Source: a virus (lineage: Duplodnaviria > Caudoviricetes). Taken from it: a DNA stretch of 28,928 nucleotides. Each line of letters opens with the position of its first letter. Position 1 is the first letter of the stretch. Shown here piece by piece: positions 8,702 through 26,723 of the stretch. Position numbers and translations under genes: made by a program. The notes below the pieces were generated by a model. That model was not told the DNA's origin. It did no database searches and saw nothing but the letters and a program-made list of their open reading frames with translations. Where the stretch lies: positions 1 through 28,928 of IMG/VR virus record IMGVR_UViG_3300033067_000919. One strand, 5' to 3'.

Positions 8702-9084
8702 CTCAATTCATTCCGCGGTGGCGTGGTGCCGATGAACCGTTGCAGGGATGCGCGCTCGTCCTCAGTTGATCCATCGCTGCCGGATTGCGCCTGAGCCTCG
8801 CGGGTGACTTCAAGCGCCTTCGCCAAGGCGCGATCCACAGTCCCGGTGATGCTGGTCTTGATGGCCTGAATCTGTTCATTCATGGCGATGGAATGCGCCA
8901 ACCACAGGTTCGCCCGCGATTTCCAGTAATCGTGCTCCTTGGCGAGAACCGAATTCATGTTGCTGAGCTGATTGACCTGATCGCGGAGGGATTTGTTTTC
9001 ATCCTGACACAGCATCAGGTCCCGTTGTAGCTGGTCATGGTCCTCAAGGAATTTCTGTGCGGACGACATCTCGTTCCGGTTCAT
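8698..9084 (-). CDS. Hypothetical coiled-coil protein
   Basis: 128-aa ORF, ATGA-coupled to the upstream gene; last gene of the leftward operon. Confidence 0.7.
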   Translation of the reverse strand: MNRNEMSSAQKFLEDHDQLQRDLMLCQDENKSLRDQVNQLSNMNSVLAKEHDYWKSRANLWLAHSIAMNEQIQAIKTSITGTVDRALAKALEVTREAQAQSGSDGSTEDERASLQRFIGTTPPRNELS

Positions 9085-9314
9085 GGTCGCTCTCCTCTCA
9101 TGATTTTACGTTGTCGGATTTTCTTCGCATCGGCCATGCTCGCGCGGAGCAGTGACAATTCGATTTGAGCCGCGCGCGGGGTGTAGCCGTAATGACTTAG
9201 GCTGACGAGGTAGACGGTTTCGCTGATCTTCCCAGCGGCGAATTCTTCGTCTCTGCGTAATTTTCGGTCGGCAAGATCGCGCCAGAAATCCGGATCGCGG
9301 CGGTCATAGGTCAT
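9081..9314 (-). CDS. Hypothetical protein (paralog of 9311-9517)
   Basis: 77 aa with ATGA overlaps at both ends. Confidence 0.7.
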   Translation of the reverse strand: MTYDRRDPDFWRDLADRKLRRDEEFAAGKISETVYLVSLSHYGYTPRAAQIELSLLRASMADAKKIRQRKIMRGERP

Positions 9315-9517
9315 TTGTCGTTCCCTTTTTTTAGCTGCTTGTCGATCTCGGACATTTCGATTTCTAGCGCCTCTCCACGAAATCCAATTAGCTCAAGGGC
9401 ACATCTCATGCTGATGTCGCTGATGGTGCCATGCTTTCGTGAACGAATTATTGACGCATATGCCTTGCGCCATTTGGCGATCCGCTCAGGTGGAATGTTG
9501 CCGGTTTTAGTTGTCAC
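9311..9517 (-). CDS. Hypothetical protein (paralog of 9081-9314)
   Basis: GTG start at 9517 preceded by GGAG; shares a G.IS.......L...G[YF]...A..IE.S pattern with its neighbour. Confidence 0.6.
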   Translation of the reverse strand: MTTKTGNIPPERIAKWRKAYASIIRSRKHGTISDISMRCALELIGFRGEALEIEMSEIDKQLKKGNDK

Positions 9518-9543
9518 GCGCCGCTCCTGCTCAATGAGCGCTG

Positions 9544-9906
9544 TCAGCCGTTCGACACAGTGAATTCGCAGTCGCCGGCTGGCGGTTGCGTGATGTGCTC
9601 TTTGTGATCGCCCTGTTCCATGCCGCATTTTGCGCACTTCCACTTGTAGTCGGCGCGCTCGTAGCACTCGATCGACAGGACGCTCTCGTCAAACTCCATG
9701 CCGCGAGTTTTCTCTTCCTCAGCGGTCATCGGAATGTAGGTCGGCTTGCAGCCTATGCCGAAGGGCCACATCACCCGACCGGGATGCGTCGCCTCATAGG
9801 CTTTGCAGATGTCGCTCACGATGGAAACCAGCTGCTGGAACTGAGCGTCTGGGACCTCGACGGCCTCGGGAAACGTCACTTCGATTGATGTGATTTTATG
9901 CGCCAT
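9544..9906 (-). CDS. Hypothetical protein with C-terminal CxxC...H...C motif
   Basis: 120 aa, RBS GAGGG, CAKCG....H motif. Confidence 0.7.
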   Translation of the reverse strand: MAHKITSIEVTFPEAVEVPDAQFQQLVSIVSDICKAYEATHPGRVMWPFGIGCKPTYIPMTAEEEKTRGMEFDESVLSIECYERADYKWKCAKCGMEQGDHKEHITQPPAGDCEFTVSNG

Positions 9907-9918
9907 CGTTGGTCCCTC

Positions 9919-10182
9919 TTAATGACCAGTGAGCTCGCGGTCTAACTCCCCGCTGCGTACTTTTCGCGCTCGCTGATTCGCATGGCGCAACAACGCGCCC
10001 TCGGTTGCGGCTATCAATTCTTCGCGCGCTTTCGGCGGCAGCACAGATGCGCAGGTCGCCGCTGCATCGATGCACGCGGCGAAAGAAGTGACGATGCTAG
10101 TCAAACTGAAGCCCTTGGTCATCTTCTCAAGGCAGAGCGCGAGTATCGCATCGCGCAATTCGGTATCTTCGTTTCTCGTCAT
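9919..10182 (-). CDS. Hypothetical protein
   Basis: 87 aa with GAGG upstream; fits the operon tiling. Confidence 0.65.
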   Translation of the reverse strand: MTRNEDTELRDAILALCLEKMTKGFSLTSIVTSFAACIDAAATCASVLPPKAREELIAATEGALLRHANQRARKVRSGELDRELTGH

Positions 10183-10200
10183 TTCCTCGGTCCTCGTTAA

Positions 10201-10443
10201 TCAGCGACGACGACGGATCGTTGCCGCCTCTGGATGGTCAAAAGCACTTTCTACGATGCTTCTGATTTCTCGTTGCATATCGAGAGCCAAAGCAACCTTA
10301 TCGTCATACGTCAGGTCGTCGCGCAGATAGCCGCCCAATGCCAGCGCGCCGATGATGTGGTCGTCTGCCCATACCCGTAACTGCTCATCATGGCAGACAA
10401 GCTCGGCGGCCGACGCAGGGTTCAAGATTATTGTTGCGCTCAT
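10201..10443 (-). CDS. Hypothetical protein
   Basis: 80 aa; fits the operon tiling. Confidence 0.6.
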   Translation of the reverse strand: MSATIILNPASAAELVCHDEQLRVWADDHIIGALALGGYLRDDLTYDDKVALALDMQREIRSIVESAFDHPEAATIRRRR

Positions 10444-10458
10444 ATCCGTTGGTCCCGT

Positions 10459-11034
10459 CTAAGGTGCGTTGCGCGCTTCAGCGGTCACGGGCTGCGCAAG
10501 CAGGTTGCCGCGCCATGAAAGAGGATTTCGCACCGTTGGAAATTCATCAGGCCACGCGATCCGCGACCAACTGCACCCGCCGTTGTCATCGACCATCGGC
10601 CACCTGGCCACGCTACGGTCAGAGCATTCCTCGCATTTGCAATCTCTCATTCGCTCCTTGCGTGGCCAGAACAGGCTGAATCCAGAGTATCCGCAGCGAC
10701 CACGTCCGAATGCATCTTCAAGGTCCGCCATTATGACGTCGGTCATTTCGGCGAAGTCTGGGCCCGGAGCATCATCAGCATCGAGACCGCTGCCCCACGA
10801 ACTACATGCTCGGATGACCCAGTACGCCGGCCTTTGATTTATTGTAGCAATCGAGAACAATGCTCGTCCGTCTCCGTAGAAAGCAGGTAAGAGATATGGG
10901 ATGAAGGTGATCGTATCGGCGGGCGTCCAAAGATACGATCGCTGTGGTTTCTCAATAGCTTTTCGCAAGCGCTGATGAATGACGTCATGTGATCCGTCAC
11001 ACTTCGCTGCCGCCGCAACATCGATTATTGCCAC
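10459..11034 (-). CDS. Hypothetical Trp/Cys-rich protein
   Basis: 191 aa, GTG start with AGGAGG RBS, CKCEEC motif. Confidence 0.65.
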   Translation of the reverse strand: MAIIDVAAAAKCDGSHDVIHQRLRKAIEKPQRSYLWTPADTITFIPYLLPAFYGDGRALFSIATINQRPAYWVIRACSSWGSGLDADDAPGPDFAEMTDVIMADLEDAFGRGRCGYSGFSLFWPRKERMRDCKCEECSDRSVARWPMVDDNGGCSWSRIAWPDEFPTVRNPLSWRGNLLAQPVTAEARNAP

Positions 11035-11046
11035 GTCAATTTCCTC

Positions 11047-11718
11047 CTATGACCGTTGAATGCTCATGATCGCGCGCCCGATCGCTTCCGGGATTTGCGG
11101 GAAGACTGCGTTTCCGATGGCTCCAATTCGGTCCATCCGATCGGCAGGCCCATCAAGAATTCGAACTGCTCGGGCGTAATTTCCCGGCCCCCAAAGGCTG
11201 CGACGAAGCGTCGGCAGCTTGGCCACTTCATCATCGATGGCGCGACGAAGTTCGCTTTGCGCGTCGGGGTATGCAACAGCCCACCAACGATCTCTTTGAT
11301 GGTCTGCCCCGATGTCAGCCCCTGAAATACGACGGTAGTACGTTGCAAAGCCAAGTCTAGCGAGGTCTCCAGCCGCGTTGGCGATCGCCGCTTCCTGGAC
11401 GTTTTCGGCAATGACGTATCGTGGTGCGGTTGCTTGCACGATGCGAAGCATTTCGGGCCATAGGTCGATTGCAACCCGTCTTCCGCGAGACGCTGTACTG
11501 AATGGCTGACAGGGGAATCCGCCGCAAACGATATCGATCGATCCGCGTCCGATGCGGAGCGATCGGACGTCCTGGTGGCAGGCAATATCAGGCCAGTGTT
11601 TTGCGAGGACGCGACGACAGAAATCGTTGATCTCGCAGAATGCGGCCGTTCGCATCCCGGCTCGTTCGAGGCCAAGGCTGAAGCATCCAATGCCGCTGAA
11701 GAGGTCGAGGACATTCAA
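11047..11718 (-). CDS. DNA (cytosine-5) methyltransferase, large (alpha) chain lacking motif IX
   Basis: TTG start after AGGAG. Motifs I (DLFSGIG), IV (GGFPCQPFS), VI (ENV), VIII (HQRDRWW) and X (RIGAIGNAVFPQI) are present; only 223 aa. Confidence 0.9.
   Translation of the reverse strand: MNVLDLFSGIGCFSLGLERAGMRTAAFCEINDFCRRVLAKHWPDIACHQDVRSLRIGRGSIDIVCGGFPCQPFSTASRGRRVAIDLWPEMLRIVQATAPRYVIAENVQEAAIANAAGDLARLGFATYYRRISGADIGADHQRDRWWAVAYPDAQSELRRAIDDEVAKLPTLRRSLWGPGNYARAVRILDGPADRMDRIGAIGNAVFPQIPEAIGRAIMSIQRS
11064..11714 (-). CDS. Overlapping-frame small (beta) chain of the C5 methyltransferase carrying motif IX; true start uncertain
   Basis: The alternate frame is open for 216 codons and ends LLHTPT...GGREITPEQFEFLMGLPIGWTEL, which resembles C5-MTase motif IX (R.LTP.E..RL.GFP..W/F). 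Confidence 0.7.
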   Translation of the reverse strand: MSSTSSAALDASALASNEPGCERPHSARSTISVVASSQNTGLILPATRTSDRSASDADRSISFAADSPVSHSVQRLAEDGLQSTYGPKCFASCKQPHHDTSLPKTSRKRRSPTRLETSLDLALQRTTVVFQGLTSGQTIKEIVGGLLHTPTRKANFVAPSMMKWPSCRRFVAAFGGREITPEQFEFLMGLPIGWTELEPSETQSSRKSRKRSGARS

Positions 11719-11728
11719 CGCTCTCTCC

Positions 11729-12175
11729 TTACGACTGCGGATTCTGAGGCGCGACGGGCACTTCAATAACCTTTATTCCCGCGTTTCGCGCTCGTCGCTT
11801 CATATCTTCGGTCCCTTTTCCGCCGGGGAAGGCGACAACCAAATCTGGCTTGCCTTCATCAATCATACGCTGGTTGCGCTTTGGACCAGCCGAGCGGTCC
11901 ATGCCGGCGGAGCGCCCATTCGGATACCAATCGGCTGGGAAAGACATAACCTTTTGACGGCGCTTGCGGGCCCACATATCGACCTGACGGTCAGCGCCAC
12001 GGGCCGCGCCGTGAATGATGATCTCATGCCCGGTCGGGCATTGCTCCGACAGTACGCGGTCGAGCAATTCGCGCTGGGCAACTATCCTCCGGCTATCTTC
12101 AATAAACTGGAATGAGCCGAGCGGGGCTTTAGAACGCTCCCCGAAATCCCGCCCGCCGCAGACCAAGACCCTCAT
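11729..12175 (-). CDS. DUF2493 / YspA-like SLOG family protein
   Basis: MRVLVCGGRDF, IIHGAARGAD, FPADW, AGPKRNQRM, VVAFPGGKGT motifs. Confidence 0.9.
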   Translation of the reverse strand: MRVLVCGGRDFGERSKAPLGSFQFIEDSRRIVAQRELLDRVLSEQCPTGHEIIIHGAARGADRQVDMWARKRRQKVMSFPADWYPNGRSAGMDRSAGPKRNQRMIDEGKPDLVVAFPGGKGTEDMKRRARNAGIKVIEVPVAPQNPQS

Positions 12176-12402
12176 AGCTTGGCTCCCTTGCCATATGCCT
12201 CGTCGTCGCCGTTGAACGTCACGAAAGGCTGGTCAGCTTCGCCCTTGGCAAAAACGATCACGTCGCCGGCTGCGATCTCCCGGAGGGCTCTCCGGTCCCA
12301 ATAGCGGTGTAGGTAGTCGGGCGGACCGAACACCAGAACCGCGTTCTGGAACCGCTGATCGTGCGGGCTCTCGAAGCGGACGAAGTGGGTTAGAATGCTC
12401 AC
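12172..12402 (-). CDS. Conserved phage hypothetical protein
   Basis: GTG start at 12402 after AGGA; HFVRF...VFGPPDYLHRYWDRRA..EI..GDVIVFA; ATGA-coupled to the SLOG gene. Confidence 0.65.
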   Translation of the reverse strand: MSILTHFVRFESPHDQRFQNAVLVFGPPDYLHRYWDRRALREIAAGDVIVFAKGEADQPFVTFNGDDEAYGKGAKL

Positions 12403-12406
12403 TGCA

Positions 12407-12718
12407 TCAATTCCTGAATTGCGGGGGCACCATATCATGGAAATCCATCGCGTCGGTTTCGCGCACTCGATCCCGGTATCCTTCCAGATTGATGCGGGCG
12501 TCACGTTCGGATTGGACCGCGGCTGTTAGAGCCCTATTATCCTCTCTGAGCCGCTCGATCTCGGTCGCATATTCCTGCGCCAATTTCACGGCCAAGTCTC
12601 GCCCCCCGATAAGGTCCGCACATCTTTGCGTCAGCATCTCAATCTGGCGGTTCTGGAACATGATGGTGTCGATTGGACGCTCGCCCTTCGGCGGCCGACG
12701 GTGTGTCATGCGGGTCAT
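12407..12718 (-). CDS. Hypothetical coiled-coil protein
   Basis: 103 aa, ATGA-coupled to the upstream gene. Confidence 0.65.
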   Translation of the reverse strand: MTRMTHRRPPKGERPIDTIMFQNRQIEMLTQRCADLIGGRDLAVKLAQEYATEIERLREDNRALTAAVQSERDARINLEGYRDRVRETDAMDFHDMVPPQFRN

Positions 12719-13515
12719 TTCTTTGCCTCGAAATGTTCGGCCAGTTTCCGGAGCAACATCTTGCGCTGGCCGACAGACACGCGCAATTCCGCGCGCTTCT
12801 GGATCTGTGTATCGCTCTCAAAATAAGACATGGCGGCGCGCTGGTCGGTCTGGCGGCCTATCCACGCCTCGCATGCAATAACATATTCGTCTGCGTTCTT
12901 CGGGCCTAATGGTGCCGTTGCCGCCGACTGATCGAGGGCTGGGGGCTGAGGGTCAGTCGGCGGCTGGGCTATATCGTGCCCGGCGGTATCGCTGTTCCGT
13001 TCTGTGGGATCGGGCATCACCTCCTTTTGCTTGCGAGCGCGCGGCTTTCTATCTTCCGGAGGCGGCTCAATATCCGGTCCCACCATGGACTCGATCTCAG
13101 AACGCAGCGCCGTGTCGTCCAAACCTGGGACGATCACAGTCGTTGCGACGTGTACGAGGCGTTTCAGCAGGCGGGTGTATTCGGTGCCGTCCATGGCGCC
13201 GAAATTCGTTGGTTTGGGTCGCAGCACGGCGACGTTGCGGAGCGGATCGAAAATGCGACGATAGTGCCGGGCTTCAATGAGCATGAAGTCCATCGCATCC
13301 TCCTTCGTCTCCAGCCAGTCGCAGGCTTCTGCGATCTTCGTCGCCAATGCCCATGCGAATTTGATTTGGCGAAGGGACCGCGGCGTCGTCGCCTTCACGT
13401 TCACCTCGGCATCCATCTTGATGTGGCCAAAGTCGTCCTCAAATACGGGGCTATCCACGAATAGCCCGATTTCACCAGCGCGGCCGGCGCGCTTGCGCAT
13501 TACAAGTTCGGTCAT
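12715..13515 (-). CDS. DUF1367/NinB-like recombination-associated protein
   Basis: PRSLRQIKFAWAL and PKPTNFGAMDGTEY resemble DUF1367 motifs; directly follows bet; start placed at MTELVMR. Confidence 0.6.
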   Translation of the reverse strand: MTELVMRKRAGRAGEIGLFVDSPVFEDDFGHIKMDAEVNVKATTPRSLRQIKFAWALATKIAEACDWLETKEDAMDFMLIEARHYRRIFDPLRNVAVLRPKPTNFGAMDGTEYTRLLKRLVHVATTVIVPGLDDTALRSEIESMVGPDIEPPPEDRKPRARKQKEVMPDPTERNSDTAGHDIAQPPTDPQPPALDQSAATAPLGPKNADEYVIACEAWIGRQTDQRAAMSYFESDTQIQKRAELRVSVGQRKMLLRKLAEHFEAKK

Positions 13516-13516
13516 G

Positions 13517-14419
13517 TCATGCCTCGAACTTGCGTTCGTTGCTCTGGTAGATTTCGAGTAGATCGTCATAGTCGCCGGGGAATAACTGGGCGCGGACAGT
13601 TTCAATGTTGTCGTTAAAGAACGCCTCCAGTTCTTCGCCGGACTGTGCGCTGCCCAGCTTGTCGATGCAGTAGGCCATGTAACTGTCCAGATCGGTCATG
13701 TGGTCCGGGGTGTTGGATGATTTTGCCTTGGCCGGCGCAGGCGGCGGGACGGTCGATTGATGGCCTGACGTGATTGGATCGTCGGCGCGGACTTCCTGCG
13801 CCTCAGATTCATCCACGATGATCTCGGGCGGCGCAGATGGGCTAGGTACGCGCCGTGGTTCTTGCGTAGAGGCCGTGCCGGCGTCCGCAATGACGCGCCC
13901 CTCGTCCTCGTCGTAGATGCCAGAAAACCCGAAAGCATACCGCGCCGCCTGTATCATCGCCTTGTGGCGCAACATGCGGTGGGGCATTTTCCACGGGTCT
14001 GTCGGGCGCTTGCACTCGCTCAGATATTCCGTGACGGTGACGGGGTATTTCCGATCCTTGCGGTAGATTTTGCATGTGATGGAAATCAGGGCGTTGTCCT
14101 CGCCGTGTTCCACATCGAACTCAAACCCGTCGCATGCCTTGTGCGAGTTAACGAGGCTCACCCACCCGTCAATCGATACGATCGGCACAATCCCGCCGCC
14201 CCGCGCAGGGAATGCGTAAATCTCGCGCGTGATAGGGTTGAGGCCGTATTCATTCGCAACCAGCAGGAACGCGGCGAATTGCTCCCGAGAGCAATCACGA
14301 GGGACGACGGTCGCGCGCAGGGTCTGCTCAAATGCGGCCGGTTCCATGCCGTAGCGGTCGGACATGGAAATTAGGACGGACTTTGGCTTGTCGGAAACCA
14401 CCAATTGATTTGCGGGCAT
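13517..14419 (-). CDS. bet: Phage single-strand annealing protein Bet (RecT/Red-beta family)
   Basis: FAAFLLVANEYGLNPITREIYAFP..GGIVPIVSIDGW and PWKMPHRMLRHKAMIQAARYAFGFSGIYDEDE. Confidence 0.92.
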   Translation of the reverse strand: MPANQLVVSDKPKSVLISMSDRYGMEPAAFEQTLRATVVPRDCSREQFAAFLLVANEYGLNPITREIYAFPARGGGIVPIVSIDGWVSLVNSHKACDGFEFDVEHGEDNALISITCKIYRKDRKYPVTVTEYLSECKRPTDPWKMPHRMLRHKAMIQAARYAFGFSGIYDEDEGRVIADAGTASTQEPRRVPSPSAPPEIIVDESEAQEVRADDPITSGHQSTVPPPAPAKAKSSNTPDHMTDLDSYMAYCIDKLGSAQSGEELEAFFNDNIETVRAQLFPGDYDDLLEIYQSNERKFEA

Positions 14420-14449
14420 TGTTTCTCTCGTTATGTCGGCGTTGAAAAC

Positions 14450-14489
14450 ACAGTACAGACAAGCGCGGCTGTGTCAAAAGAAATTTGAC
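14450..14489 (-). promoter_or_regulatory. Putative sigma70 promoter for bet with overlapping 17-bp palindrome
   Basis: Minus strand TTGACA-N16-TACTGT; palindrome GTCAA-aagaaat-TTGAC at 14473-14489. Confidence 0.6.
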
Positions 14490-14494
14490 GGTTT

Positions 14495-15574
14495 TCACCG
14501 CACCCTCGTCCGTTCTTCGGTGTGTGTCCCGGCCACGGTCATGCCAGCGTCGGTTTTCTTTTGCGCCAGTTTCTTGATGAGTGCAGACAATTCCGCATCG
14601 CCTTTCAGGGCGGCATATGCTGCGGCCTCGTCGTCAACGATGACCTCGTGCCAGACAGACACGGCGGCGGCACGGCCAACGGCTCCGCGGATTTGCTCAG
14701 ACGGCGGCGGGGTGTTCGGCGGGGGCGGCGCGACCGGCGGCGGTGGTGGCGGCGCATTCCGCGCCTCGGCCTCGCGCCTCTGCCGCTCAAATTCCATGCG
14801 CTCGCGTTCGGCCTTTTCAGCGGCGAGCCGCGCGATCCGGCGCTTTTCGTTCTCCCATGCCTCCATGGCGCTGCGGATCGTGGCCGCCGTATCCTTTGCC
14901 AGCTTCACGATCGGCATCCACTGGGCGTCAACCTTGCGCCCGGCTTCAAGGTGCGGTTCCTTTTCAGCGGCCCGCGCCTTGTCGGCCTTCCCGGCCAATT
15001 CCGTCAGACTGGCCCGGAGCGACTGCGCCCGCTTGGCGGTGCCGTCGTCCTCGATCTTGGCATATTGCACGGCATCGCTAACCAATCCATCAATCTCGGC
15101 AGCAATCTTGGCTGCCGGGGTGGATTCTTTTTTTGCATCAATCATCGCGAATGTACGCTCCAAATCCCGGTCAAAATTCGGGTTTTCTTCGCGCATGTCG
15201 GCCACGGTTTTCCCGCCCTGCATTGCGATGCGATCAGCCTTCTGCTTTGCAGTCTCTGGCTTGGTTCTCTCGCTCGTGTGACTGTCAGACCACGGCAATC
15301 CCTGCTCGGCCACGCGGCGATATTCTTCCTCAGTGATCGGATAGGCCACAACCCACGTCCACAGGGCGACGCACTGGTCTGCGGTAAGGTCCCGGTTCCC
15401 GATCCGCCCAGCCAATTCCTCGCCGTCCATCCAGAACGCGACCGGCTCCCATGTGACGGCCTTGGTTTCCTTGTCCTTGTTCCGCTTGCGGTAGAAACCC
15501 ACGTCCACGTCGGATTCGTAGGTGGGGATTTTCTCGCCGGCCAGTCGCTTCTGCCAGTTGGTGTAGTCGCTCAT
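14495..15574 (-). CDS. Coiled-coil recombination-region protein (Gp157/Gam-like candidate)
   Basis: ATG 15574 overlaps the upstream stop. Long Ala/Lys/Glu helices with EKEPHLEAGRKVDAQW, a poly-Pro linker and a C-terminal VAG...EE; directly upstream of bet. Confidence 0.6.
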   Translation of the reverse strand: MSDYTNWQKRLAGEKIPTYESDVDVGFYRKRNKDKETKAVTWEPVAFWMDGEELAGRIGNRDLTADQCVALWTWVVAYPITEEEYRRVAEQGLPWSDSHTSERTKPETAKQKADRIAMQGGKTVADMREENPNFDRDLERTFAMIDAKKESTPAAKIAAEIDGLVSDAVQYAKIEDDGTAKRAQSLRASLTELAGKADKARAAEKEPHLEAGRKVDAQWMPIVKLAKDTAATIRSAMEAWENEKRRIARLAAEKAERERMEFERQRREAEARNAPPPPPPVAPPPPNTPPPSEQIRGAVGRAAAVSVWHEVIVDDEAAAYAALKGDAELSALIKKLAQKKTDAGMTVAGTHTEERTRVR

Positions 15575-15828
15575 AATTTCCATCCCATGATGTTTGCGAT
15601 CTCGTGCCCGTACAGGTCGCGAGGGTCCCTCAACGTGGCAACGCGCCACAAATGCAGATCGAATGACACGCGGTCGAAATCCTCCCATGCCTCATTCGCG
15701 TAAGGTCGCATGCGGAGAGATTCGTAAATCCTCTCCCTTTCCTCTCGGGTGGTTTCGGAGCATGTCGCCAAGTAGTAGAGCGTCATCCCAAAAAACACGA
15801 CGCACAGGATCGCCGCCATCCAATTCAT
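15571..15828 (-). CDS. Hypothetical membrane-anchored protein
   Basis: N-terminal TM (WMAAILCVVFFGMTLYYL); ATGA overlaps at both ends. Confidence 0.65.
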   Translation of the reverse strand: MNWMAAILCVVFFGMTLYYLATCSETTREERERIYESLRMRPYANEAWEDFDRVSFDLHLWRVATLRDPRDLYGHEIANIMGWKL

Positions 15829-16226
15829 TGTCCGAATCTCCTTTTGGGCCATGCCGTCTTGCGGCTGGCGATCTTCGTTCGTTTGTCGCGCGGCTTGCGC
15901 GGGTTGATCTTGCGCGGGCCTTTCGGCTTGCCGCCCGTCCCGCCAAACTCGGCATACAGCCGAAGGGCGGCAATGAACGGATTAATCCCGTATTTCTTCC
16001 AGAACGCTTCCTCGTTCATGGAGTGCTGTTCGCGGTGCAGGTCCGGATGCAACGGGACGCACCAGAAATCGGATGGTTTTTCCTGCATGCCAGCGGCAAC
16101 CTTGCCTAGCGTCGGATTGCCCATGCGGATATGGCACGCCTCTACGGGGGTTCGGCCGCTGATGATGCACGGCCGCTTTCGTAGCCACGCCAGAAATGCC
16201 GAATCGTAGAGGCGTGGATTTTTCAC
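15825..16226 (-). CDS. DUF968-like HNH-related nuclease
   Basis: FLAWLRKRPC..SG...EACHIR...KPSDFWCVPLH...HREQH...EEAFW. Confidence 0.75.
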   Translation of the reverse strand: MKNPRLYDSAFLAWLRKRPCIISGRTPVEACHIRMGNPTLGKVAAGMQEKPSDFWCVPLHPDLHREQHSMNEEAFWKKYGINPFIAALRLYAEFGGTGGKPKGPRKINPRKPRDKRTKIASRKTAWPKRRFGQ

Positions 16227-16227
16227 G

Positions 16228-16386
16228 TCAGTTTCCGGTGCGGTGTCTGATCTCGCGATCGATCATGTCCTTGATCGCGGATTCGATGGCGTCGGCATGC
16301 TCTTTCCATGCTGGAACACCAGCATTTCCCGTCACTGCCCAGATCATTTTGAGGATGGCTTGTCCAAGCGGGGTTAACTCGTTCAC
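16228..16386 (-). CDS. Hypothetical protein (52 aa)
   Basis: GTG start overlapping the upstream stop (GTGA). Confidence 0.5.
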   Translation of the reverse strand: MNELTPLGQAILKMIWAVTGNAGVPAWKEHADAIESAIKDMIDREIRHRTGN

Positions 16387-16490
16387 GGCGTCCCCACCCA
16401 CAACAGGAGGCAAACGGCGAAAAAACCGCAGGCGCAGGCGGCTTCAATCGCCGCGACAATACGATAGCGGAGCATGTCGGGGTCCATCAT
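16383..16490 (-). CDS. Small membrane peptide (35 aa), not in the ORF track
   Basis: MMDPDMLRYRIVAAIEAACACGFFAVCLLLWVGTP; GAGG upstream; ATGA and GTGA overlaps fill the operon gap exactly. Confidence 0.55.
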   Translation of the reverse strand: MMDPDMLRYRIVAAIEAACACGFFAVCLLLWVGTP

Positions 16491-16807
16491 TTATCCTCGT
16501 GATTGATTACGCGCGTCTTGGCGTCGTGGTCGTGGACGGCCTTGGTGAGCATTTTGATCCCGTGGCGGATGTAGGCCGGGACGCGCTGGATGCGCTCAAC
16601 CTGATCGTCCAGCACAGCCTGCGCGCGTTCGACCGACGCTCCGGCCTCGACGGCCATGTGCAGGCCGGTCATCATGCCGCGCTGGCCTTCCTCAGAAAGG
16701 TTATATTCCAGCCGCATCCACGCCAGCATGCGTCGAAGATGATTGACCTCGGCGTCGGTCATCGGCATGGCGGCGTTGTTCTCGTCGCCGGTCAGGATGA
16801 GTTTCAT
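16487..16807 (-). CDS. Hypothetical protein
   Basis: Start MKLILTGDE overlaps the upstream stop (ATGA), with GGGAG upstream. Confidence 0.65.
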   Translation of the reverse strand: MKLILTGDENNAAMPMTDAEVNHLRRMLAWMRLEYNLSEEGQRGMMTGLHMAVEAGASVERAQAVLDDQVERIQRVPAYIRHGIKMLTKAVHDHDAKTRVINHEDK

Positions 16808-17013
16808 GCCCGCGCTCCCTCGTACAGTGACCGCCAGTAGCCATCGCCTTCCGACGTATTGGCCCAAAAGAATGCCTGCCGGAGCAACGTGGCAGGGTCG
16901 ATGTGTTCGGGCACCGGCGCGGATGCCGCAAACCACGGGGTCCAGACTGCCAACTCGAAAATCCGCTGCGCATGGAGCGGGAAGGCGGCGAATATCATCT
17001 CGCGGCGGGTCAT
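16804..17013 (-). CDS. Hypothetical protein
   Basis: ATG 17013 after AGGAG; C-terminal AFFWANTSEGDGYW motif. Confidence 0.6.
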   Translation of the reverse strand: MTRREMIFAAFPLHAQRIFELAVWTPWFAASAPVPEHIDPATLLRQAFFWANTSEGDGYWRSLYEGARA

Positions 17014-17024
17014 GTGCTTGGCTC

Positions 17025-17435
17025 CTAGTTGTCGAACCAAAAGACAAGGCGATACGCCGACAGATCGCCTTCGGCGCCAAAGAAATGTAACGCCGGATAT
17101 TCCTTGGCATATTTGTCGGTCAGTTCCCTTTCGGTTTTGGCAAATATTGCCGCAGCCTCGTCCAGGGGGAGCCACGAGTGAGAGTGACCGTCGCCGCCCC
17201 ATTCATCGGAAAGGGCTCGCGTCGTATCACTGGCATCAGATGGGATACCCTTCGGCTCCAATCCACCTTCGCCCCGAACATTGGCGAGCGCCGTAAACCG
17301 AGTGTAATTTCGGCTACGCGCCTTCGGGGAAGCCCATCCCTTGCCATAGGCGGTTTCATGTCCATTGAACGTATCAACGCCGACCCACTTCCCGCCGAAT
17401 TTCTTTTCCAGAACCAGATGAATGTCGCAGCCCAT
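17025..17435 (-). CDS. Conserved phage protein (MGCDIH...FWFDN family)
   Basis: GGAGG RBS; MGCDIH, RNY..F..LANVRG, GIPSDAS, HSHSWL, RLVFWFDN. Confidence 0.8.
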   Translation of the reverse strand: MGCDIHLVLEKKFGGKWVGVDTFNGHETAYGKGWASPKARSRNYTRFTALANVRGEGGLEPKGIPSDASDTTRALSDEWGGDGHSHSWLPLDEAAAIFAKTERELTDKYAKEYPALHFFGAEGDLSAYRLVFWFDN

Positions 17436-17452
17436 AGTCGCCTCCATTGTTC

Positions 17453-17526
17453 GTAAAATCATATTTGACCTATCGGCGCGATTAGGTCAAGTACATTTTG
17501 ACAAATCGTGCGCGGTGTGAGATATG
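17453..17526. promoter_or_regulatory. Divergent promoter/operator region
   Basis: Two tandem palindromes (GTAAA-N7-TTGAC at 17453-17469, GTCAA-N7-TTGAC at 17486-17502); rightward TTGACA-N17-GATATG; leftward CTTGAC at 17491-17486. Confidence 0.7.
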
Positions 17527-17532
17527 GGCAAC

Positions 17533-17799
17533 ATGGGAAATAAGACAGCCAGCACCCCGCAAGATGGGTTTACTCTTGCATTTCAGGAGTTTGTCCGCCG
17601 AACCGAGCCCTCGCGGGCACGCAAGAACGGTCAACTGGTGGACTTTGCCCGTGAAATATCCCGAGTGACAAAACTGGAAATATCCAAACAGCGCGTGTCT
17701 CATTGGCGCAAGTCTGGAATTCCATTGGAGTTCTGCAAGGCCGTGGCCCAACTGACGGGCGTTCCTCGTGAGAAGCTGCGGCCTGACGTTTTCGATTAA
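17533..17799 (+). CDS. Cro/CI-type (YdaS-like) HTH regulator
   Basis: ISKQRVSHWRKSGIP...C..VAQLTGVPREKLRPDVF is typical of Cro/YdaS-like proteins; start at 17533 or 17524. Confidence 0.8.
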   Translation: MGNKTASTPQDGFTLAFQEFVRRTEPSRARKNGQLVDFAREISRVTKLEISKQRVSHWRKSGIPLEFCKAVAQLTGVPREKLRPDVFD

Positions 17800-25613: not shown

Positions 25614-26723
25614 ATGTCAACCAGAATTGACTGGCTTACGCCAGAGCAAGCGGCGCGCTTCGAGGAATGGTCAAAGCAGTGGATTGAGATCGGACTATCG
25701 ACGGCCCCCGCCGACTTCGACACGGCTACGGACGCCGCGCTGCGCGCGTACAAGCTCGCGAACCTTGATCGGCCAATGGTCATCCTTCGCATGTCGTCGC
25801 CGTATGGTGCGACGCTGGGTGGCGCATTGGCTTGGCAGTTGCTGCGCAGCATGGGCGACAAGGCGGTCAAGGATCAGGTCTGGGATCAGGTCGGGGCTCA
25901 GGTCAGGGCTCAGGTCTGGGATCAGGTCGGGGATCAGGTCGGGGCTCAGGTCAGGGCTCAGGTCTGGGATCAGGTCTGGGATCAGGTCGGGGATCAGGTC
26001 GGGGCTCAGGTCTGGGATCAGGTCGGGGATCAGGTCGGGGCTCAGGTCAGGGATCAGCTTCGCAACGCGCCCTATAACTCCATCCAAACACAATTTGACG
26101 CCGGCTTCGCCGCATGGGTCACCTTCTTTCGTGATGTCTGCGCCTGGGCGAATCCGGCGCTCGAAAAATTCTCCGTCTTTGAGGATTTGGTCAAGAATTG
26201 CGGATGGACTTGGTGGCATGAAAACGTGCTGGCGATCTCTGATCGCCCGGCGGTTATCAACCGCGACACCGAAGGCCGACTGCACTGTGAGAATGGACCA
26301 TCGATTTCGTATCGAGATGGCTGGCGATTGCATCATTGGCATGGGACGGCGGTGCCGGCAGAGTGGATTGAGAACCGCGCAAATCTAGACCCAGCAGTGG
26401 TTCTGAAATCGAAGAACGTCGAACAGCGTGCGGCTGGCGCTGCAATCGTCGGCTGGCCGAAGATGGTAACAAAACTCAAACGCAAAGTTATCGACGGTGA
26501 TCCGGATACCGATATGGGCGCGCTGATCGAATTGACATTGCCGGGATTGCGCGAGCCGGGCCGCTTTCTGCAAGCACAATGCCCACGCAATGGAATAATC
26601 GTCGAGGGCGTTCCACGCATCAGTGACATCGACAATCTGCCCATCAACACGGTTATCGCTGCGCAGGCATGGCGCGTTGGCGATCCGCAATCCGAATACG
26701 AGCATCCTCCGGTGAGGACGTGA
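25614..26723 (+). CDS. DUF6745-like protein with internal tetrapeptide repeat
   Basis: LSTAPAD, MSSP, xQVx repeats, [17 protein letters not shown]...[29 protein letters not shown]. Confidence 0.8.
25872..26057 (+). repeat. Coding tandem repeat, 15.5 x 12 bp G(A/C)TCAGGTC(T/G/A)GG
   Basis: Read directly from the sequence; encodes (D/A)QV(W/G/R). Confidence 0.95.

Follow-up and report, generated by a model that had tools for sequence, protein, structure and literature searches.

A compact phage cytosine-C5 methyltransferase gene with a nested second reading frame: two probable chains behind one Shine-Dalgarno sequence

The nested layout, in which a methylase is encoded in two reading frames of the same DNA, was reportedly published in 1995 for one enzyme, and the beta chain of M.EcoHK31I is initiated internally, a good distance into alpha. 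As described in the available text on this Escherichia coli enzyme (specificity YGGCCR), beta lies wholly inside alpha, both chains are required and later beta starts are tolerated (PMC2836561), while alpha is said to carry the predicted recognition domain (PMC3404938). M.AquI, also a natural two-chain C5 methyltransferase, is split differently according to the accessible parts of PMC3404938 and PMC5944983, its small chain carrying motif IX and a portion of the variable region (PMC3404938). On the side of translation, the available portion of a study of E. coli reporters and native sites describes one Shine-Dalgarno serving starts in two frames at AUGUG or GUGUG, with spacing and codon strength deciding between them (PMC9841429); the starts are 2 nt apart there, and the range of Shine-Dalgarno spacing tested is 10-16.

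Here we analyse a phage locus that may combine these features in a compact form. The window is a linear virus record of 28.9 kb (28,928 nucleotides), estimated to be 34% complete, in which the methylase gene is present in single copy. On the minus strand, open-reading-frame translation yields alpha, read from a TTG at 11718 over 223 codons to 11047, and a +1 frame, beta, read from an ATG at 11714 over 216 codons to 11064 and contained entirely within alpha (Table 1). As in the published account of M.EcoHK31I, in the parts available, alpha carries motifs I-VIII and X, motif IX falls on a beta chain inside alpha in another frame, and the N-terminal part of beta is dispensable or variable. Compared by published description only, the locus differs from M.EcoHK31I in that alpha has about 223 residues and 46 codons separate motif VIII from the IX-like segment; it also differs in that beta likely starts 4 nt after alpha and in being an orphan phage gene, with no restriction enzyme match among 13 neighbours. 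A TL-like loop and selection lie on beta here, whereas the accessible text of those papers puts the predicted recognition domain on alpha. By analogy, the locus is likely a variant of the M.EcoHK31I type that works in the same way and has its recognition domain placed otherwise. Motif X is on the small chain of M.AquI, as far as its description is available, whereas in this locus alpha carries it, in the frame of motifs I-VIII, and beta is nested. Unlike in the monomeric M.HhaI type, not all of motifs I-X share one frame, and frame 0 holds neither an IX-like nor a TL-like segment. The start region would resemble the ambiguous initiation of PMC9841429 (available part) in pairing two start codons in different frames with one Shine-Dalgarno; it differs in that the starts are 4 nt apart (NTGAATG), that dual use is deduced from conservation and that the two products would belong to a single enzyme as its subunits, and the ATG of the window, at 17 nt, falls outside the 10-16 range.

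Table 1. Features of the methylase locus (window coordinates).
Feature	Coordinates	Strand	Basis and remarks
Alpha chain, 223 aa, TTG start	11047..11718	-	Catalytic domain of a C5 methyltransferase (motifs I-VIII), with motif X; PF00145, phrog_363, structure model
Beta, in the +1 frame inside alpha; 216 codons from ATG	11064..11714	-	First ~145 residues open, sequence not conserved
Shine-Dalgarno TAAGGAG	11725..11731	-	Shares TAA stop of upstream gene; aligned distances 13 nt (TTG) and 17 nt (ATG)
Twin start TTGAATG	11712..11718	-	Alpha TTG 11718 and candidate beta ATG 11714; sequence and comparative tests
Dual-constrained core, ~50 beta residues (alpha codons 148-197)	11128..11277	-	Four-fold third-position identity; beta identity exceeds alpha identity
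Beta LHTPT, TL-like loop, likely part of target-recognition region	11262..11276	-	TL consensus of PMC2413257 (available part)
Beta motif IX-like helix and turn (ITPEQFEFLMGLPIGW)	11133..11180	-	Trained matrix; helix 54-61 of beta model; weak profile alignment, E 0.11
Alpha motif X (GNAV)	11104..11115	-	Residues 202-205
Alpha catalytic Pro-Cys (motif IV), P69-C70	11509..11514	-	Unchanged in 60/60 aligned homologs
Beta-frame TTG directly ahead of conserved core; rival internal start giving 70 aa	11274..11276	-	TTG or GTG in 33/43 compact relatives; lacks a 4-nt Shine-Dalgarno match
Upstream SLOG-family gene	11729..12175	-	PF10686, E 8e-14; stop overlaps Shine-Dalgarno

Both frames are open, and the motifs are split between them. 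Translation and a scan of frame 0 bore out the initial annotation in its account of a 223-aa main frame with motifs I, IV, VI, VIII and X and no motif IX, and the ATG that it placed only 4 nt from the TTG, behind one AGGAG, was found together with the full TAAGGAG at 11731-11725. The nested segment that it had located at about 11124-11190 and quoted as beginning with LLHTPT is present, but the quoted segment spans 11192-11124 and LLHTPT itself begins at 11279. An assembly error as the origin of the two frames was rejected: a contig from another run, which may itself be the source, is identical over 1101/1101 bases, and at least 99% of sampled words are present in 14 runs. RNA runs over the stretch gave short contigs only, at low depth and with no raw reads, which is uninformative as to expression.

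The motifs of alpha, named by established usage, are I (F7-G11), IV (P69-C70), VI (ENV, 105-107), VIII (R142-W146) and X (GNAV, 202-205). Profile searches of both frames, proposed in the initial annotation, identified alpha as a member of PF00145, which covers residues 1-154 only (E 6e-29; profile positions 1-165 of 324), but returned no Pfam match for beta; phrog_363 matches alpha over residues 1-222 (E 3e-57). An AlphaFold model of alpha built from a 60-row alignment has a mean pLDDT of 82.7 and superimposes on M.HhaI (2i9k) with Z 20.7 and rmsd 3.3 over 210 aligned residues. It places helices at 157-184, and its confidence drops to pLDDT 44-54 at residues 171-200, the region where motif IX should be.

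To characterize the second frame across the family, we fetched 280 loci by alpha-frame patterns, dropped 18 that were open-ended, 14 that had no motif X towards the end and 4 that lacked motif I, and reduced the remaining 244 to 215 at <90% identity and to a non-redundant set of 214 with motif X. A matrix for the IX-like segment, trained on half of the loci and tested on the other half with a cut-off of 15, detects the segment in the +1 frame of 207/214 homologs and in frame 0 or +2 of 0/214 (best scores -8.6 and -13.7); its position in the +1 frame is not due to chance. Six of the seven misses show a weaker similar segment, and the seventh (L196) had it under a simpler pattern. The offset between the IX-like segment and motif X is 14 codons in 145 homologs. 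Most of the 14 loci dropped for motif X are frameshifted copies, several of which keep IX one frame ahead of X.

Stop codons in the +1 frame are depleted over the same region. With expectations obtained by synonymous resampling of 195 loci, stops seen and expected were 10/454 between motifs IV and VI, 3/415 between VI and VIII and 0/548 between VIII and IX, summing to 13 seen against ~1,420 expected from IV to IX; outside this span, the N-terminal part gave 418/513 and the part beyond IX 454/506. The last +1 stop lies at least 12 codons ahead of motif IV in 201/206 loci, and over the same span the +2 frame is free of stops in 0/206; the beta stop precedes the alpha stop in 191/206 homologs. 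Of the 258 loci that have a closed end and motif I, 244 keep frame 0 open as far as motif X. Four close relatives carry +1 stops at alpha codons 91-120, past motif IV, so the beta start would be mobile within the clade. The two-chain, M.EcoHK31I-like reading had been put forward with dual-frame conservation as its check, and the homologs indeed keep the +1 frame open across the IX-like segment.

Although in register with the canonical motif IX, the beta segment resembles it weakly. The best alignment of the beta profile is with motif IX of a monomeric plasmid enzyme (E 0.11), and among monomeric enzymes the matrix ranked motif IX first in 3/7. The ten plasmid methylases compared comprise seven monomeric enzymes and three two-frame ones with divergent ends. 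In three cyanobacterial plasmid methylases (L337, 1198-2010; L342, 995-1753; L345, 983-1795) the +1 frame is likewise open and carries a TP unit and an IX-like segment, and motif X is divergent; one is the pAQ5 methylase of Picosynechococcus PCC 7002, and the +1 frame of L337 and L345 extends into the next annotated gene. Other arrangements occur among the homologs. The beta frame continues past the IX-like segment by 535 (L170), 418 (L182) and 132 codons (L160), which suggests that beta is fused to another domain in these loci. In L194 and L225 the IX-like segment shares the frame of motifs I-VIII and motif X lies in another, owing to an indel or a natural rearrangement. Mycobacterium phage Llama (L335, 1201-1960) has two annotated methylase genes due to a frameshift near motif VI that is common to several related phages; its IX-like segment is still one frame ahead of motif X.

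We assessed how selection acts on beta in 43 non-redundant compact relatives, some of them fetched with a beta pattern (72 loci kept; 21 without the motif I pattern and 3 open-ended ones dropped). Identity at four-fold third positions of alpha is 0.32, 0.32 and 0.36 along codons 3-147, rises to 0.66 (codons 148-158), 0.90 (159-166), 0.68 (167-181) and 0.80 (182-197), and is 0.38 after codon 197; codons 159-166 are the selection motif, which makes the 0.90 figure circular and leaves the flanking figures unaffected. Seventeen compact loci fetched by alpha patterns show the same course, with identities of 0.79-0.88. Over codons 148-197, identity is 0.37-0.91 for beta versus 0.26-0.53 for alpha. 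Since the silent positions of alpha are frozen and the flanking identities are high, about 50 beta residues (11277-11128) are under purifying selection.

This core opens with LHTPT, a candidate recognition element. The recognition-region consensus in the available part of PMC2413257 includes P-T-(I/L/V)-(T/A/S/V), 10-50 residues ahead of motif IX. A TL-like pattern of this type, widened here to admit Pro and scored between motifs VIII and IX in 195 loci, occurs in the +1 frame of 127/195, in the alpha frame of 1/195 and in the +2 frame of 6/195; the window fits only a looser form, for which the counts are 182, 29 and 49 of 195, respectively. There is one TL-like unit in the window and up to five in others. 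Because the selected part of the second frame includes the TL-like loop, DNA recognition likely sits on beta, which would be the recognition chain. The description of alpha as having almost no target-recognition region thus holds insofar as the region is absent from alpha, but it is not merely missing, the loop being likely on beta. The enzyme had also been called very compact, and its span from motif VIII to IX, at 46 codons, is indeed close to the shortest in the family (39 codons, against a lower quartile of 56 and a median of 96).

Beta itself is poorly represented in reference collections. Its model alone reaches pLDDT 81 and pTM 0.58, with a helix at 54-61. Comparison of the model with solved structures and searches with the beta sequence gave no match, which is uninformative at this size, and no beta family was found in Pfam, NCBIfam or PADLOC. 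Residues 175-212 match PHROGs 31772, 26627, 1008 and 35493 at E 1e-4 to 0.08; in that resource these families of the beta C-terminal part and PHROG 363 for alpha are separate, and the two frames are unlinked. The 216-aa beta sequence is present in the ESM Atlas, and gene callers have called beta alone as a hypothetical protein in 7 proteins. The expectation that standard annotation would miss beta fits the GenBank record of phage PS-1, where only alpha is annotated, but it is too broad, given the seven proteins and the PHROGs in which beta has been called by itself.

Where beta starts is a separate question. An ATG (122) or GTG/TTG (63) lies 3-16 codons ahead of motif IV in 185/206 loci, and most relatives likely start beta internally, to judge from these codons. 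The window is among the 21/206 that have no ATG, GTG or TTG in this zone, and ATG 11714 is the sole ATG or GTG ahead of its conserved core. A start of beta 4 nt after alpha's was examined in 201 of 230 non-redundant loci, 29 being dropped for want of a start, motif or flank. The N-terminal +1 frame is open in 25/32 loci with a +4 ATG (3.8 expected) and in 34/169 without one (9.7 expected), and because these 34 open loci exceed the 9.7 expected, the null underestimates openness. Among loci with GC3 of at least 0.5 the contrast is 24/24 with the ATG versus 29/94 without (p 1e-10); below 0.5 the ATG has no predictive value for openness (1/8 vs 5/75). Merging GC-rich loci linked at third positions into groups leaves 11/11 open, with 2.4 expected. 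Alpha starts with GTG or TTG in 12/23 co-start loci versus 22/95 others (p 0.01), and loss of internal ATGs in co-start loci is not clear (14/23 vs 50/65, p 0.17). A tree-based test of independent pairs, with 7 pairs only, had little power (median p 0.5), and the co-start state could have had one single origin. For the window alone, the chance openness of the N-terminal +1 frame is 0.11.

The position of the Shine-Dalgarno adds to this pattern. Spacing was measured in the aligned form of PMC9841429, in which the optimum is 13-14 according to its available text, and a match of at least 4 nt was required. The distance to the alpha start has a median of 12 and never exceeds 14 in the 17 of 24 fully open co-start loci with a match, versus a median of 14 in 89/135 closed loci (p 5e-6), so that the Shine-Dalgarno lies about 2 nt closer to the alpha start in co-start loci than in closed ones. 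The shift persists under same-register or single-candidate-start controls (p 3e-4 to 0.012) and for group medians (p 3e-4), and the distances are 13, 14, 14, 18 and 21 in five loci where this ATG is accompanied by a closed frame. A register that sets the +4 site at 12-15 is available in 11/24 co-start versus 14/135 closed loci. The twin start is correlated both with openness of the +1 frame and with displacement of the Shine-Dalgarno. Distances to the alpha and beta starts are 12 and 16 in co-start loci (medians) and 13 and 17 in the window, which also has weak 3-nt GAG second registers 13 and 15 nt from the ATG. A near-identical contig (L001) is at 13 and 13: its position 88 has G for A at window 11724, which extends the Shine-Dalgarno to 8 nt and adds, 4 nt downstream, a GGAG at a distance of exactly 13 nt to the ATG. 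A hairpin that would cover the Shine-Dalgarno and the TTG and leave the ATG in the loop was rejected (z -1.38; 18/200 shuffles as good), and a scan of 9000-17600 for promoters and terminators found no excess over shuffles. At 11717-11724, two contigs from runs X15 and X16 part from the window: one matches the upstream gene until 11724 and the other the methylase start until 11717. These are single low-depth contigs; the methylase gene may have been exchanged as a module, the junction lying at its ribosome site. The claim of a shared ribosome-binding site gains comparative support for a subset of the family, marked by an open N-terminal frame, a shifted Shine-Dalgarno and weaker alpha starts, but not for all of it, and is least secure at the window. 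That beta may start internally, as was also suggested, fits most of the family (185/206), but the window better fits a start 4 nt after alpha's.

The strongest competing account, possible though on the whole unlikely, retains two chains and lets beta start at an internal TTG (e.g. 11354 or 11276), ATG 11714 being a by-product of Asn-Val codons. Internal starts are what the 185/206 loci with a start codon ahead of motif IV would use, and the accessible text of PMC2836561 reports that M.EcoHK31I beta also works from internal methionines; a TTG or GTG stands ahead of the conserved core in 33/43 compact relatives, the four close relatives with late stops must initiate beta past alpha codon 91-120, and the Shine-Dalgarno of the window is optimal for the TTG and long for the ATG. 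Against this, the usual zone in the window lacks a start codon, and its internal beta-frame TTGs have weak or badly spaced Shine-Dalgarno matches. TTG 11276 is not favoured as the sole beta start either, as it equally fits a conserved leucine and leaves the open upstream frame unexplained, and the family-level co-start signals are not predicted by internal initiation.

Two further accounts dispense with a second chain. A single chain made by +1 ribosomal frameshifting after motif VIII and a shift back before motif X is very improbable. The constraint does move from frame 0 to +1 at codon 148 and back at 197, as a double shift needs, but the +1 frame is stop-poor for at least 75 codons upstream of the putative shift (13 seen vs ~870 expected), and an open frame ahead of motif VIII points to a chain with its own start rather than to frameshifting. 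Neither this openness nor that of frame 0 to motif X, seen in 244/258 loci, would be required by frameshifting, and M.EcoHK31I functions from two separated genes, according to the available part of PMC2836561. It is just as hard to credit that alpha alone is a compact methylase and the +1 frame a shadow of its codons or an unrelated product. Most of the alpha model is predicted with confidence, with helices at 157-184, and the beta model matches no solved fold; yet over codons 148-197 it is beta that is better conserved (0.37-0.91 vs 0.26-0.53), with the silent positions of alpha frozen, confidence in the alpha model falls at 171-200, the expected place of motif IX, and the IX-like segment keeps a fixed offset ahead of motif X.

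We therefore favour a two-chain cytosine-C5 methyltransferase in which beta carries the recognition loop and motif IX and both chains are started from one Shine-Dalgarno, at the TTG or at the ATG 4 nt on, and put the probability of this whole reading at roughly 0.6. On the comparative sequence evidence, the existence of two chains is very probable and, given two chains, co-start is rather probable. Both chains would be translated, and by analogy with M.EcoHK31I they would assemble. Ribosomes finishing the SLOG gene at its TAA, or newly binding TAAGGAG, would choose between a weak, well-placed TTG and a strong, more distant ATG; translational coupling of the SLOG-family gene to the methylase is possible. 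Alpha would fold into a SAM-binding catalytic domain closed by motif X. Beta would consist of a long unstructured leader, its first ~145 residues being presumably dispensable and open only to let the ribosome reach the core, and of the last conserved 50 residues, docking as a small domain. By a slight preference, we regard NTGAATG behind a Shine-Dalgarno about 2 nt closer as a selected dual-start device that doses both subunits, the weak alpha TTG or GTG balancing the more distant ATG, combined with a swappable recognition module of ~50 residues (TL-like loop and motif IX) overprinted on an alpha spacer, which, for enzymes of the M.EcoHK31I type, would put the recognition domain on beta instead of alpha.

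The general view of orphan phage methylases is that they guard phage DNA from host restriction, and this orphan enzyme would likewise methylate phage DNA against host restriction. The methylase gene lies among accessory and recombination genes (SLOG, RecT), and restriction-enzyme models gave no match in 13 neighbouring genes. AGCT, TATA, TGCA, GGCC, CCGG and GAAT/ATTC are under-represented in the whole window (z -2.3 to -3.5), a depletion that does not identify the methylase target. Elsewhere the window encodes a second methylase of N6/N4 type (PF01555; 19156-21434, minus strand), directly after an SNF2-like helicase gene; a DUF6745 protein (25614-26723, plus strand) with about ten internal Val-Asp-Gln repeats of 4-8 residues, across which several frames are open; and a 1701-aa protein with a ddrB-like ParB domain (PF18763; 1152-6257, plus strand), probably a large injected virion protein.

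Our literature search, to which subscription papers, REBASE and supplements were outside the scope, found no account of a phage-wide two-frame family or a 4-nt twin start, and, with most subscription papers likewise outside it, no conserved ambiguous initiation in which both frames are parts of one enzyme; the available portions of PMC3711429 and PMC5009743 do not mention the layout under the terms searched. Two candidate relatives were set aside: a prophage enzyme with YGGCCR specificity (PMC6536676) is an m4C enzyme according to the accessible text of PMC3925955, and the tested phage m5C enzymes of PMC5537653, at ~700 aa, are not of the same family. The comparison supports as new a near-minimal version and the comparative evidence for a 4-nt co-start, the layout itself being already known and common in phages.

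Phage methylase candidates at E 1e-20 or better number 7,745 of the 8,000 scored, with the layout checked in part of them, and for thousands of phage methylases the annotation probably shows a single chain. Work that clones alpha only, or predicts specificity from it, would overlook the part that reads DNA. The cyanobacterial plasmid methylases L337, L342 and L345 offer a culturable test case. Split methylases serve targeted methylation (PMC2836561, available part), and a 223-aa catalytic chain with a recognition peptide of ~50 residues would be a compact natural split methylase, while the twin-start methylase genes would form a natural series of ambiguous start sites with built-in controls.
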